From Caulobacteraceae bacterium (lineage in GTDB: Bacteria; Pseudomonadota; Alphaproteobacteria; Caulobacterales; Caulobacteraceae): DNA of 64,000 bases. Numbering within the stretch: the first letter of the stretch is position 1; each line of letters starts with the position of its first letter. Both the position numbers and the translations under genes were made by a program. The notes beneath the pieces are model-generated. The model saw only the letters and a program-made list of their open reading frames with translations. It ran no database searches and had not been told where the DNA came from. Shown here piece after piece: positions 5,507 to 55,272 of this stretch. Where the stretch lies: contig JAIXZX010000005.1 in assembly GCA_027489335.1 (NCBI GenBank), forward strand, positions 87,125-151,124, in the 5' to 3' direction.

Positions 5507-6489
5507 GCCCGACCCTCGTCTCCATCCTGGCCGCTGTGCTGGCCTTCGTCGCCGTGGCGGGGTTCGGCTTCGTCCTGGTGGGGCAGTCGCCGGGCCAGGC
5601 CCGGGCGGCGCGGCGCACCCAGGCCATGCTGGGCCGCGAGACCCGCGAGGCCAAGGCCCGTCGGGGCGGCTCCAATGTTCAGGACCAGCGTCGCAAGCAG
5701 ATCCTCGAAAGCCTGAAGGAACAGGACCGGGCCCAGCGCAAGGCCTCCCTGTCGGTCAAGGCGCGCCTGCAGCAGACCGGGCTTGGCACTACGGTGCGCA
5801 CCTTCTGGATCATCAGCGCCGGGCTGGGGGTTTCGGTCTTCCTGCTGACGGTCACCCTGGGCCAGCCGGCCTATCTGGCCCTGGGACTGGGATTCGCTGC
5901 AGGGCTTGGCCTGCCGCGCTGGATCGTCTCGATCCTGGCCGCCCGGCGGATCAAGAAGTTCGTCGAGTCCTTTCCCGACGCCATGGACATCATCGTGCGC
6001 GGCATCAAGTCGGGCTTGCCGGTCAATGACAGCCTGCGGGTGATCGGCGCCGAGGCGCCCGAGCCGCTAGCCGCGGAGTTCCGTTATCTGACCGAGAACA
6101 CCGGCATGGGCGTCTCCATCGATCAGGCGATCGACCGCATGTACGAGCGCATGCCGGCCCAGGAGGTGCGATTTTTCGGTATCGTCCTGGCCATTCAGCA
6201 GAAGACCGGCGGCAACCTGGCCGAGGCGCTGGGCAATCTCTCGACGGTCATCCGCGCCCGGAAGCTGATGCGCGAGAAGATCAAGGCCCTGTCCGGCGAG
6301 GCGGTGGCCTCGGCCTTCATCATCGGCTCCCTGCCGCCTGCGGTGGTGGTGATGATCAGCCTGATGGCCCCGGAATACATGGCGCCCCTGTTCGTCGATC
6401 CCCGGGGCCGCATCATCCTGCTGGGCGGGGTGCTGCTGATGGCGCTGGGCATCTGGGTCATGCGCCGCATGATCAGCTTCAAGATCTGA
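5503..6489 (+). CDS. tadB: Tad inner-membrane platform protein TadB (T2SS F family)
   Basis: FPDAMDIIVRGIKSG and QQKTGGNLAEAL motifs; TM segments; follows cpaF. Confidence 0.93.
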   Translation: MSPTLVSILAAVLAFVAVAGFGFVLVGQSPGQARAARRTQAMLGRETREAKARRGGSNVQDQRRKQILESLKEQDRAQRKASLSVKARLQQTGLGTTVRTFWIISAGLGVSVFLLTVTLGQPAYLALGLGFAAGLGLPRWIVSILAARRIKKFVESFPDAMDIIVRGIKSGLPVNDSLRVIGAEAPEPLAAEFRYLTENTGMGVSIDQAIDRMYERMPAQEVRFFGIVLAIQQKTGGNLAEALGNLSTVIRARKLMREKIKALSGEAVASAFIIGSLPPAVVVMISLMAPEYMAPLFVDPRGRIILLGGVLLMALGIWVMRRMISFKI

Positions 6490-51086: not shown

Positions 51087-51974
51087 TCAGGCGTTGACCA
51101 GGTTCCGGTCTTCGGCGGCGGCCTGCATGGTCTTCTGCAGCTTCTCGAAGGCGCGGACCTCGATCTGGCGCACCCGTTCGCGGCTGACACCGTACTGGCC
51201 AGCCAGTTCCTCGAGCGTCGTCGGATCGTCCTTCAGCCGCCGCTCGGTCAGGATGTGACGCTCACGGTCGGACAGCTCGGCCATGGCCTCCTGCAGGAGG
51301 CCCATGCGCAGGCCGCGCTCCTCGTTGTCGGCGACCACCGTCTCCTGGCTGGGGGCGGCGTCGTCGGCCAGCCAGTCCTGCCACTCGCTCTCGGAGTCCG
51401 AGCGCAGGGGGGCGTTGAGCGAGGCGTCCGGACCCGACAGGCGCCGGTTCATGGAGATGACCTCCTCGTCCAGCACGCCGAGCTTGGTGGCGATCTGGCG
51501 AACCTGGTCGGGGTGCATGTCCCCTTCCTCGAAGGCGCTGATCTGGCTCTTGGCCTTGCGCAGGTTGAAGAACAGCTTCTTCTGCGCCGCCGTCGTGCCC
51601 ATCTTCACCAGGGACCAGGACCGCAGGATGTATTCCTGGATCGAGGCGCGGATCCACCACATGGCGTAGGTGGCCAGGCGGAAGCCCCGGTCGGGATCGA
51701 ACTTCTTGACCGCCTGCATCAGGCCGACATTGCCCTCGGAGATCACCTCGCCGATGGGCAGGCCATAGCCGCGATAGCCCATGGCGATCTTGGCCACGAG
51801 ACGCAGGTGGCTGGTGACGAGCCGATGGGCGGCCTCGGGGTCTTCATGCTCCTGCCAGCGCTTGGCGAGCATGAACTCCTCGTCCTTGGCCAGCATCGGA
51901 AATTTGCGGATATCGCTGAGATACCGGCTCAGGCCGCCTTCCGGCGACATGACGGCAAGCGTTTGCGCGGCCAT
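51087..51974 (-). CDS. rpoH: RNA polymerase sigma-32 factor
   Basis: RpoH box KMGTTAAQKKLFFNLR; SHLRLV, FATY-like LATYAMWWI and VSRERVRQIE motifs. Confidence 0.97.
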   Translation of the reverse strand: MAAQTLAVMSPEGGLSRYLSDIRKFPMLAKDEEFMLAKRWQEHEDPEAAHRLVTSHLRLVAKIAMGYRGYGLPIGEVISEGNVGLMQAVKKFDPDRGFRLATYAMWWIRASIQEYILRSWSLVKMGTTAAQKKLFFNLRKAKSQISAFEEGDMHPDQVRQIATKLGVLDEEVISMNRRLSGPDASLNAPLRSDSESEWQDWLADDAAPSQETVVADNEERGLRMGLLQEAMAELSDRERHILTERRLKDDPTTLEELAGQYGVSRERVRQIEVRAFEKLQKTMQAAAEDRNLVNA

Positions 51975-52188: not shown

Positions 52189-53202
52189 TCAGAGGGCGCC
52201 CAGCAGAGCTTCAAGCCGGGCCATGTCTGCGGGCAGGGGGGCCTCGAACCGTAGCGGCTCGGTGGTGATGGGATGGATGAAACCCAGCACCTGGGCGTGC
52301 AGGGCCTGGCGGGTCAGGCCCGCCTCGGCCATGGCGGCGCGCACGGCCGGCGCCGGGCTGCCAGAGCCATAGACGGCGTCCCCCAGGCAGGGGGCGCCCT
52401 TGGACGCCATGTGGACGCGGATCTGGTGGGTGCGGCCGGTCTCCAGCCGGCAGCGCACCCGCGCCGCCGTCGGTCGGTCTGAGGGGCCGAACAGGGCGGT
52501 GGTCTCATAGTGGGTGATCGCCTCCCGCCCCCCGGACTTGAGGACCGCCATCTTCTTGCGATCATGGGCCGAGCGGCCCAGCAGGGACTGCACCGTCCCC
52601 TTGCGCGGCTTGGGGGCGCCCCGGGTCAGGGCCACATAGGCCCGGTCGATGTCGTGGTGGAAGAACAGGGCCGAAAGGCCCTGGTGCGCGGCGTCGGTCT
52701 TGGCGCAGACCAGGACGCCGGAGGTGTCCTTGTCGATCCGGTGGACGATCCCTGGCCGGGCGACCCCGCCGATCCCTGACAGGCTGGCGCCGCAGTGGTG
52801 CAGCAGGGCGTTGACCAGGGTGCGATCCGGCGAGCCTGGCGCCGGATGGACCGCCATGCCCGGGGGCTTGTCGACCACGATCAGGTGGCTGTCTTCGAAC
52901 AGCACCTGCAAGGGAATGTCCTGGGGCTCCGGCTCGGCGGCGATGACCGGCGGGACCAGGATCTCATAGGCGCCGGGCTGGGCCTTGGCCGAGCCGTCCC
53001 GCACGATCTGGCCGTCCCGGCTCACCGCGCCTGTGGCCAGCAAGGCCTGGATACGGGCCCGGGACAGGTCATCGGCAAGCGCCGCCAGGGTCTTGTCCAG
53101 GCGCCCGCCAGCGGACTCGGCGGCGACCTGCAGCACAAGCAGGTCGCCGTCGTCCTCGGCCTCAAGGATCGGAACCGGCGGGGCGCCGGGGTCAGAGCCC
53201 AT
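52189..53202 (-). CDS. rluD: RluA-family 23S rRNA pseudouridine synthase (RluD)
   Basis: S4-like N-terminus; VDKPPGM, GIVHRIDKDTSG, TGRTHQIRVH and QALHA motifs; start probably ATG 53202. Confidence 0.92.
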   Translation of the reverse strand: MGSDPGAPPVPILEAEDDGDLLVLQVAAESAGGRLDKTLAALADDLSRARIQALLATGAVSRDGQIVRDGSAKAQPGAYEILVPPVIAAEPEPQDIPLQVLFEDSHLIVVDKPPGMAVHPAPGSPDRTLVNALLHHCGASLSGIGGVARPGIVHRIDKDTSGVLVCAKTDAAHQGLSALFFHHDIDRAYVALTRGAPKPRKGTVQSLLGRSAHDRKKMAVLKSGGREAITHYETTALFGPSDRPTAARVRCRLETGRTHQIRVHMASKGAPCLGDAVYGSGSPAPAVRAAMAEAGLTRQALHAQVLGFIHPITTEPLRFEAPLPADMARLEALLGAL

Positions 53203-53509
53203 GCTTGTCGGCGGCGCCTTCCTCATGGCCCATGATGGAGCCGTCCTTGAACAGGTACTCCTTCAGCTGGCCGTCGAACTGCTCATCATTGCGGCGGATC
53301 CATTCCAGGACCATGGCCGCATGCTCCATTTCCTCCTTGGCGTTGTGCAGAAGGATGGCTTTCAGCTCCGGATCGTCGCAGTCGTCGGCCCGCTGGCGGT
53401 ACCAGTCCACCGCCTCCAGCTCCTCCATCAGCGAGGCGATCGCATAGTGGAGCTGGAGCGTCTTGGGGCTAAGCTTTTCCCGGGGGACGTGAAGGGTCTC
53501 GCTGGCCAT
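53192..53509 (-). CDS. Encapsulated-ferritin (EncFtn/Flp)-like protein
   Basis: LMEELEAVDWY, HNAKEEMEHAAM, LEWIRR and YLF match the EncFtn pattern; AGGAG RBS; start ATG 53509 (53515/53518 possible). Confidence 0.9.
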   Translation of the reverse strand: MASETLHVPREKLSPKTLQLHYAIASLMEELEAVDWYRQRADDCDDPELKAILLHNAKEEMEHAAMVLEWIRRNDEQFDGQLKEYLFKDGSIMGHEEGAADKHGL

Positions 53510-53595
53510 AGGCATCATGCTCCTGTCGCAAAGGCCTTCTATTGCACGGGCTCGGACCTGACGCGAGTTGGGGGCGCGAGTTGGGGACAGTCAGA

Positions 53596-55272
53596 ATGAA
53601 GATCGATCGCCGTCGGGCCCTTGCCCTTCTCGGATTCGGCGCCGCCGCGCCGCTCACCGCCCAGGCCCAGGCGCCCTACGGCGGTCCGGTGGCCTTCGAG
53701 CACGGGGTGGCTTCCGGCGACCCTCTGGCTGATGCGGTCATTCTGTGGACCCGGATCACTCCCAAGGCCGAGGGCGCGGGGCAGATCGCCTATGCCTGGC
53801 GGATGAACCCAGTGGATCGCCGGGCCGGCGGCGCCAAGTCCGGAACCGGCGTCACGGGACCCGAGCAGGACTACACGGTGAAGGTCGATGTCACCGGGCT
53901 TGATGCGGCGCGGGCCTACACCTTCGAATTCGAAGCCAACGGCGTCACCTCGCCCATGGGCCGCACCCGCACCCTGCCGGTGGGCGAGACCCGCGAGCTG
54001 GTCCTGGCTGTGGCCTCCTGCTCGCTCTATCCCAACGGCTATTTCAACGCCTATCAGGCCATCGCCGACCTGCCCCAGCTCGACGCGGTGGTCCACCTGG
54101 GCGACTACATCTACGAGTACGGAGGCGAGGGGTCCTACGGCATGACCTCGGCCGTGGCCGGTCAGCGGCCCCATGACCCGCCCCATGAGATCGTGACCCT
54201 GCAGGACTACCGGGTCCGCCACGCCCAGTACAAATCCGACCCGTCGCTGCAGGCCGCCCATGCCCGCGCGCCTTGGATTGTCACCTGGGACGATCACGAG
54301 ACGACCAATAACTCCTGGATGGACGGGGCCGAAAACCATCAGCCCGAGACCGAGGGCGACTGGGCGACCCGCAAGGCCAACGCGCTGAAGGCCTATTTCG
54401 AGTGGATGCCGATCCGCAATCCGGCGCCTGGCGCGGCCATGACCGCCATCAACCGCAGCTTCCATTTCGGCGACCTGGCCAGCCTGATCATGCTGGAAAC
54501 CCGGATCGGCGGCCGCGACCTGCAACTGGACTACGCCAAGGACCTGCCGATCGTGGACGGCCAGGCCGACCTGCCCGCCTTCCGCCAGCGTCTGGACGAT
54601 CCTGATCGTCGCATGATGGGCGCCCAACAGGAGGCCTGGCTCGCCGGCGAATTGGCCAATTCGGTCCAGTCGGGCCGCAAGTGGCAGGTGCTGGGCAACG
54701 CCGTGGTCATGGCGCGGGTCATGATGCCTGCGGCGCGCAAGACCATGGGCGAAGAGGCCTTCGCCCAGGCGATCGCCAGCCTGCCGCCGGGGATCGGCGT
54801 CCTGGTCGAGCGTTGGGAGCGGCTTTCGGCGCTGGGCCTGCCCTACGGCCTGGACATGTGGGACGGATATCCTGTGGCGCGGGAGCGGCTCTACGACGCC
54901 ATTGCGGCCGCCGACGCCCGGGTGGTGGTGGTGTCTGGCGACAGCCACGCCTTCTGGGCCAACGAGCTTTATGATGATGAGGACAAGCTGCGCGCGGTGG
55001 AGTTCGGGACGACCGGGATCACCAGCCCCGGCGCCGGCGACTATCTGACCGGCGTCGAGGTGGGCGAGCTGTTCGCCGCGGCGTCCAAGGAAGTGGTCTT
55101 CTCCGACCAGGCGGCCAAGGGGTTCATCCTGCTGACCCTGACCCCTGACGCGGTGAAGAGCGAGCTGATGACCGTCTCCTCCATCGTCTCGAAGGACTAT
55201 GTGACCGCGGTGCGCAAGTCATTCACCGTCACGGCGCAGGAGTCCGGCGTCTCCCCGCTGAAGGCGCTCTGA
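53596..55272 (+). CDS. phoD: Alkaline phosphatase D family
   Basis: Tat-like DRRRAL signal; FEHGVASGDP, HLGDYIYE, WDDHE, WDGY and GDSH motifs; start corrected to ATG 53596. Confidence 0.94.
   Translation: MKIDRRRALALLGFGAAAPLTAQAQAPYGGPVAFEHGVASGDPLADAVILWTRITPKAEGAGQIAYAWRMNPVDRRAGGAKSGTGVTGPEQDYTVKVDVTGLDAARAYTFEFEANGVTSPMGRTRTLPVGETRELVLAVASCSLYPNGYFNAYQAIADLPQLDAVVHLGDYIYEYGGEGSYGMTSAVAGQRPHDPPHEIVTLQDYRVRHAQYKSDPSLQAAHARAPWIVTWDDHETTNNSWMDGAENHQPETEGDWATRKANALKAYFEWMPIRNPAPGAAMTAINRSFHFGDLASLIMLETRIGGRDLQLDYAKDLPIVDGQADLPAFRQRLDDPDRRMMGAQQEAWLAGELANSVQSGRKWQVLGNAVVMARVMMPAARKTMGEEAFAQAIASLPPGIGVLVERWERLSALGLPYGLDMWDGYPVARERLYDAIAAADARVVVVSGDSHAFWANELYDDEDKLRAVEFGTTGITSPGAGDYLTGVEVGELFAAASKEVVFSDQAAKGFILLTLTPDAVKSELMTVSSIVSKDYVTAVRKSFTVTAQESGVSPLKAL

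Follow-up and report, generated by a model that had tools for sequence, protein, structure and literature searches.

A short EncFtn-like protein without a targeting peptide or an encapsulin shell in a Caulobacteraceae genome

The EncFtn protein Rru_A0973 of R. rubrum (PDB 5DA5) is 140 aa long, carries a disordered linker of ~40 aa that ends in SLGIGSLK, and is encoded beside an encapsulin. Its ferroxidase centre has been assigned to E32, E62, H65 and Y39, its iron entry site to E31, E34 and W38, and its exit site to H57, E61 and E64 (PMC5012862). Isolated EncFtn has ferroxidase activity but is unable to hold mineral (PMC5012862; PMC7762939). It shares di-iron ferroxidase chemistry on a four-helix scaffold with Bfr and Dps; however, these two assemble into closed 24-mer or 12-mer cages in which mineral is stored, whereas the EncFtn half-bundle builds an open, cavity-free ring (PMC7762939). 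Short forms that lack the tag were named "Non-EncFtn" by He et al. 2016 (PMC5012862), and Eren et al. 2024 use "s-FLP" for short forms in which no targeting peptide is apparent, taking 3K6C as their prototype (PMC11202242). That entry, NE0167 of N. europaea, is an unpublished structural-genomics structure, and a literature search for a functional study of any short tag-less EncFtn-like protein found none.

We examined a gene of this kind in a 64,000-nt stretch of DNA, hereafter the window, from a Caulobacteraceae bacterium of the genus Phenylobacterium. The features around it are as follows.

51087..51974, minus strand: rpoH (sigma-32), next downstream and in the same orientation; Sigma70 r2/r4/r1_2 domains
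52189..53202, minus strand: rluD, an RluA-family 23S rRNA pseudouridine synthase; PF00849 E 4e-32, TIGR00005 276 bits
53192..53202, minus strand: 11-bp overlap of the EncFtn stop and the rluD start, ..AAG CAT GGG CTC TGA / ATG GGC TCT GA..
53192..53509, minus strand: short tag-less EncFtn-like coding sequence of the "s-FLP" / "Non-EncFtn" type, 105 aa; called on PF22277, structure matches, the conserved start and omega
53510..53595, no strand: divergent intergenic region of 86 bp, read directly
53520..53524, minus strand: Shine-Dalgarno AGGAG, 10 nt 5' of the ATG at 53509; (A/C)CAGGAG stands in the same place in ~30 Caulobacteraceae loci
53596..55272, plus strand: phoD, a PhoD-type alkaline phosphatase with the RR signal MKIDRRRALALLGFGAAAP; PF09423 E 7e-106

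An open frame at 53192..53518 on the minus strand is present in the window. Upstream alignment of ~30 orthologous loci places the start common to the genus orthologues at the ATG at 53509, giving a protein of 105 aa that begins MASETL...; two more in-frame ATGs, at 53515 and 53518, probably do not serve as starts. Near-identical proteins in public gene calls are also 105 aa long and are labelled just "ferritin family protein [Phenylobacterium sp.]". A search with Pfam PF22277 (EncFtn-like) gave a match across model positions 2-85 of 85 at E 1e-39 and 134.6 bits, the cut-off being 27. The protein reaches 121.4 bits with TIGR04535, the NCBIfam model for encapsulin-associated ferritin (model positions 2-97 of 114), and falls just below the cut-off of 125 because the last 17 model positions, in the C-terminal part, are absent. 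The protein contains the motifs EELEAVDWY and HNAKEEMEH, and its C-terminal end is GHEEGAADKHGL. An earlier note on this DNA had described the open frame with both motifs and this end, the 11-bp overlap with rluD and the divergent phoD, and we recovered all of these on reading the window and its translation; phoD lies 86 bp away on the plus strand.

The closest solved relatives are the R. rubrum EncFtn (5da5, E 6e-30), the H. ochraceum EncFtn and N. europaea NE0167 (3k6c, E 8e-28). The alignment to Rru_A0973, the best match at 57% identity, is gap-free, and all ten iron-site residues are kept (E31, E32, E34, W38, Y39, H57, E61, E62, E64 and H65 in Rru numbering). Across an alignment of 68 mostly tag-less homologues, nine of the ten do not vary and E61 is conserved at 90% or more. 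An AlphaFold (AF2) model built on the same alignment (pLDDT 93.2) places helices at 15-42, 47-74 and 76-85, that is, two long antiparallel helices and a short C-terminal helix corresponding to half a ferritin bundle, followed by a weak helix at residues 92-103. Foldseek comparison of the model with 5da5 gave a target-normalised TM of 0.93-0.95, and the model superposes on 5da5 and 3k6c with an rmsd of 0.9-1.1 Å over 87-89 residues at a sequence identity of 55-59% (0.9-1.0 Å for 5DA5; 1.0-1.1 Å and 56-59% identity for NE0167). NE0167 resembles the protein described here in its short EncFtn fold (95 vs 105 aa), its intact ExxH di-iron site and its short tail, which likewise lacks a targeting peptide; it crystallises as a decamer. 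Alignment and model together show a predicted two-long-helix EncFtn fold with a complete R. rubrum-type di-iron centre and entry and exit sites. By domain score, fold and di-iron residues, the 105-aa protein belongs to the EncFtn-like superfamily PF22277.

The protein stops 18 residues past the conserved ..YLF. No LxIGSL-type cargo-loading peptide was found in this 18-residue tail, in agreement with the earlier note, and in relatives that bear a targeting peptide the tail is 30-55 residues long and ends with ..[LF]x[IV]GSL[KR]. Tails were classified with a 50%-identity representative library of 1086 relatives, many of them fragments or frameshifted, and the use of the library was limited to this purpose. 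The tail here, LFKDGSIMGHEEGAADKHGL, begins LFKDGSIMGHEE.. and is a Caulobacteraceae variant that differs from the LFTD(E/N)KPIAHE consensus that Eren et al. 2024 list for s-FLPs, which fits the beta- and gammaproteobacterial forms. Tail length is variable (proteins of 100-105 aa) and the tail evolves faster than the domain. The ..K-H-G-L end of the 105-aa forms is conserved because the rluD ATG overlaps there, so it reflects dual coding and not a binding motif. With an EncFtn domain, a tail within the s-FLP limit of about 20 aa and no targeting peptide, the protein falls into the s-FLP class. The marks of the encapsulin-cargo class (FLP-TP; TIGR04535), namely a targeting peptide, a PF04454 shell gene and a TIGR04535 score above the cut-off, are all absent.

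The R. rubrum protein is encoded next to its shell, whereas the genome studied here has none that we could detect. No encapsulin was found in the window, as the earlier note had stated, and a PF04454 (Linocin_M18) profile search of the 3.1-Mb, 14-contig, 94.9%-complete assembly gave 0 matches while three control genomes were positive. Searching the same genome by tblastn with two proteobacterial encapsulins from related loci returned nothing below E 0.3. PF04454 was also found in 0 of 37 Phenylobacterium genomes, several of them closed, 20 of which carry the EncFtn-like gene. A search of the genome with PF19307 (family-2 encapsulin) gave no match, but the control genomes also gave none, and this result does not speak for absence. 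By the PF04454 and tblastn results, the present assembly contains no family-1 encapsulin, and by PF04454 none is present in the 37 genus genomes.

In order to see how common such shell-less short forms are, we drew a sample of 401 alphaproteobacterial species genomes evenly from the class. A strong EncFtn-like gene is present in 71 of the 401 and an encapsulin in 25, with 23 genomes having both; in all 23 the two genes are adjacent (within ~1 kb). The remaining 48 of the 71 genomes (68%) have an EncFtn-like gene but no encapsulin, and shell-less short forms are the majority state in Alphaproteobacteria. A similar picture emerged when we took the 80 GTDB species-genome loci closest to the query. 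Seventy-seven of these encode 93-108-aa forms with short tails and have no encapsulin within 6 kb, and they come from Alpha-, Beta- and Gammaproteobacteria and, in a few cases, from Actinomycetota, Myxococcota and Bacteroidota. Just three of the 80 (L059, L062 and L075) have an end resembling a targeting peptide, and encapsulin lies directly downstream in 3/3. Genome-wide, PF04454 is absent from 21 of 22 named short-form genomes and present in 3/3 tagged controls; the exception, L058 (Acidimicrobiaceae), has an encapsulin elsewhere. Tag and adjacent shell are therefore mutually predictive in all cases checked (23/23 genomes, 3/3 tagged loci and 77/77 untagged loci).

The earlier note had taken EncFtn to be normally encoded beside an encapsulin with a targeting peptide. 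This expectation fails for the short subfamily, whose class had already been named, and with about two thirds of the alphaproteobacterial EncFtn-bearing genomes lacking an encapsulin, the name "encapsulated ferritin" is misleading in the case of most members of the family. The locus adds a Caulobacteraceae clade to the described Non-EncFtn / s-FLP class, a find that is real but ordinary, and a cargo that lacks its shell is no longer the paradox it seemed to be. The Caulobacteraceae forms differ from the NE0167 type in forming a clade of their own and in their phoD / rluD-rpoH context, which replaces the rubrerythrin-CCG-DUF3501 operon. We built a tree from tagged and tag-less forms (149 rows, 87 columns). 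On it the short forms of Phenylobacterium and Caulobacter group together in a single clade (32 rows, SH-aLRT 91), and vertical inheritance within the Caulobacteraceae clade is shown. Phenylobacterium kunshanense BUT-10 and Caulobacter sp. RHG1 are culturable carriers of the gene. Tag state is clustered on the tree, with 14 changes vs 21.8 in shuffles; tagged and tag-less forms are interspersed at deep nodes without support, and the tree neither shows nor excludes a single origin.

What might such a protein do without a shell? We favour, with a probability of about 0.6, a free cytosolic ferroxidase ring of the s-FLP / Non-EncFtn type that lowers labile Fe(II) and passes Fe(III) to Bfr, Dps or other acceptors. 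By analogy with 5DA5 and 3K6C, monomers would pair head-to-head to form the di-iron site, five dimers would assemble in an iron-dependent manner into a ring without a cavity of its own, and the ring would oxidise Fe(II) with O2 or H2O2. In the cell, such a ring would lower labile Fe(II) and peroxide, so that less Fenton chemistry takes place, and the Fe(III) might then pass to other acceptors, most plausibly the cell's own Bfr and Dps cages, both of which are encoded in the same genome (contig C9). Several points weigh against this reading. It is not obvious what a cell would gain from a ferroxidase whose insoluble Fe(III) product is set free in the cytosol, and the genomic context (rluD, rpoH) is a housekeeping one. 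Pho, Fur, sigma-32 and OxyR-like elements were sought by eye in the aligned upstream regions, and no assignable operator, and hence no recognisable iron- or peroxide-responsive one, was found.

The earlier note had offered a shell-independent ferroxidase side by side with a relic left after shell loss, and the second of these, a remnant of a lost encapsulin operon drifting to loss, can draw on the patchy presence of the gene in the genus (20/37 genomes; 12/19 of those at least 95% complete) and on the unsupported intermixing of tagged and tag-less forms at deep tree nodes. Such patchiness is consistent with an accessory gene that benefits those genomes which keep it, and we infer from it a role in stress protection rather than as a core iron store. 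Pairwise Nei-Gojobori comparison with the window gene over the 87-codon domain gave omega values of 0.05-0.25 at dS 0.2-1.9, with the tail less constrained, and at the codon level purifying selection on the gene is shown. The open frame, the Shine-Dalgarno sequence and the start are kept in every copy examined, the active-site residues are invariant, and a family-level clade shares the same form. Such low omega at near-saturated dS (about 1 across the Caulobacteraceae clade) contradicts decay; the relic is rejected on dN/dS and carries next to no weight, while the shell-independent ferroxidase stands as the best reading, with no shell in genome or genus, an intact active site and strong purifying selection. 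The same note had suggested an iron-phosphate link through the neighbouring phoD. Substrates of the Tat pathway fold and acquire metals in the cytosol before export, and PhoD, an Fe3+/Ca2+ user with an RR signal, would fold and load its metals there, where the EncFtn-like protein could supply Fe(III); the divergent pair is also well kept within the family, phoD being the -1 gene in 12/14 of the named loci in Caulobacteraceae, and most loci of the genus show the pair as well. However, phoD lies beside the EncFtn-like gene in 0 of ~65 loci outside Caulobacteraceae. A PhoD orthologue (58-80% identity) occurs in 15/17 genus genomes without EncFtn and is undetected in 4/20 with it (odds ratio ~0.5), in the closed genome G009 the adjoining phoD is broken into two frames next to an intact EncFtn gene, and no Pho box is recognisable by eye in the intergenic region. 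Since the adjacency is confined to Caulobacteraceae and, within the genus, PhoD occurs independently of EncFtn, the pairing is inherited synteny and functional coupling is unsupported. We reject the link on synteny and phyletic pattern, and consider an iron-donor role extremely improbable.

Short homologues outside Caulobacteraceae are mostly alone, in unrelated contexts, but 10-11 beta- and gammaproteobacterial loci encode on one strand a rubrerythrin (PF02915), a 445-aa CCG Fe-S oxidoreductase (PF02754), the s-FLP and DUF3501 (PF12007). This conserved gene order may reflect a redox module for peroxide or oxygen, and it speaks for a redox enzyme rather than iron handling: a stable di-iron cofactor would take electrons from a partner to reduce H2O2 or O2, much as rubrerythrin does, with the ring as no more than its quaternary form. 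That the preferred substrate of EncFtn, O2 or H2O2, is undecided (PMC7762939) also leaves room for such an enzyme. On the other side, homologues of rubrerythrin, the CCG oxidoreductase and DUF3501 are absent from the genome studied here (tblastn, none at E 1e-3), the iron sites of R. rubrum EncFtn are labile and Fe(II) is turned over as a substrate (PMC5012862), and the 105-aa protein keeps the residues of the iron entry and exit sites; we regard the redox enzyme as unlikely here. Still more doubtful is the idea that the protein remains a cargo, with a hidden signal in its short tail or on the ring surface that would direct it to a shell that is highly divergent or has gone unrecognised. Eren et al. 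2024 allow for an undefined binding sequence in the ~10-aa s-FLP tail (PMC11202242), and the encapsulin elsewhere in the L058 short-form genome, the PF19307 search without a positive control and the weak helix at the end of the AF2 model are in line with it; against these stand the absence of PF04454 in the 37 genus genomes and in 21/22 named short-form genomes, a tail whose length varies and which evolves faster than the domain, and a ..HGL end that is explained by the rluD start. We therefore give a hidden shell signal little credence and retain the free ferroxidase ring. Whether the free ring hands iron to Bfr and Dps or acts as a redox enzyme is a question that belongs to the whole class. 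As a speculative and, in our estimate, rather unlikely generalisation, the tag-less ring may be the main shell-independent EncFtn branch, a cytosolic di-iron enzyme with soluble partners (rubrerythrin, the CCG oxidoreductase and DUF3501 in Beta- and Gammaproteobacteria; in Caulobacteraceae perhaps an external ferroxidase feeding Bfr/Dps), with the tagged forms as a derived minority.

Finally, we considered the immediate neighbours and the expression of the gene. rluD lies 3' of the EncFtn-like gene in 31 loci, and rpoH is syntenic in the Caulobacteraceae loci. The rluD ATG at 53202 (position -10 from the EncFtn end) is kept in at least 12 species (loci L001, 2, 3, 6, 10, 13, 15, 16, 18, 20, 21 and 25). 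In other genus genomes the EncFtn-rluD gap is 20-380 nt or genes are inserted, and given this variable spacing the coupling is restricted to a subclade. At the present locus, rluD is probably co-transcribed with the EncFtn-like gene, which would be the first gene of the unit. Neither sigma-70 promoters nor intrinsic terminators were detected by consensus scanning, be it around the gene or in the relative L004, as expected at about 70% GC. The aligned upstream regions contain the conserved Shine-Dalgarno sequence and a partly conserved dyad, TATG-N7-CATA (four species). Short contigs of RNA-type metagenomic libraries, partly from relatives, span the open reading frame, and one is an exact match to 53324-53550, which is weak evidence that the EncFtn-like gene is expressed. 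At 53563-53588, across the region of the phoD ribosome-binding site, this genome alone carries a tandem duplication of 13 nt, relatives having a single copy, and the contig from a relative's RNA run is 13 nt shorter at this place.

Only one of the 22 genomes with a short tag-less EncFtn-like gene (s-FLP) also carries a family-1 encapsulin. This is the Acidimicrobiaceae genome G480 (locus L058), where the encapsulin is located at C7:116340-117095, on a different contig from the short EncFtn-like gene. Three alphaproteobacterial genomes from the class sample (G085, G248 and G441) contain two EncFtn-like genes apiece, one beside an encapsulin and the second at an unlinked site, indicating that tagged and untagged forms can coexist within one cell. 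In the Phenylobacterium genome that holds the window, the only PF00210 proteins are a bacterioferritin and a Dps, which are encoded ~21 kb apart on contig C9:

C9:72504-72902 (+), bacterioferritin
C9:50770-51186 (-), Dps

The short EncFtn-like gene of Beta- and Gammaproteobacteria lies within a conserved same-strand unit, in the order rubrerythrin (~150 aa), CCG-domain Fe-S oxidoreductase (~445 aa), s-FLP and DUF3501 (~193 aa). The unit is found around position 6001 of loci L063, L065, L069, L070, L072, L079, L094, L096 and L097, and is partly present in L061, L064 and L068. It may constitute a peroxide or oxygen redox module. A tblastn search of the window's genome (E 1e-3) found none of the three partners of s-FLP.

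Directly upstream of the EncFtn Shine-Dalgarno sequence, about 15-35 nt 5' of it, four Phenylobacterium species (L012, L017, L020 and L021) share a TATG-N7-CATA dyad, which has the LysR-type T-N11-A shape. None of the dyads here could be matched to a regulator. Locus L014 has ATCT-N7-AGAT, and the window has a different dyad in its place, followed by a tandem duplication over the phoD ribosome-binding region:

53530-53552, dyad GCAA-N10-TTGC
53563-53588, 13-nt tandem duplication, copies gcgagttgggggc and gcgagttggggac

The phoD ATG starts 8 nt past the duplication. The closest relatives (L002, L003 and L006) have a single copy of the 13-nt element, and the RNA-run contig of a relative is missing these 13 nt.

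In the closed Phenylobacterium genome G009 (L004), the EncFtn-adjacent phoD (C1:938740-940399) is broken into two overlapping frames covering residues 1-338 and 330-556. This phoD is a frameshifted pseudogene unless the break comes from a sequencing error. Its EncFtn-like neighbour is intact, and another, full-length PhoD is encoded elsewhere in G009. The window's genome also has a second, distant PhoD-like gene outside the window, at C7:105407-106339 (39% identity over residues 3-303).
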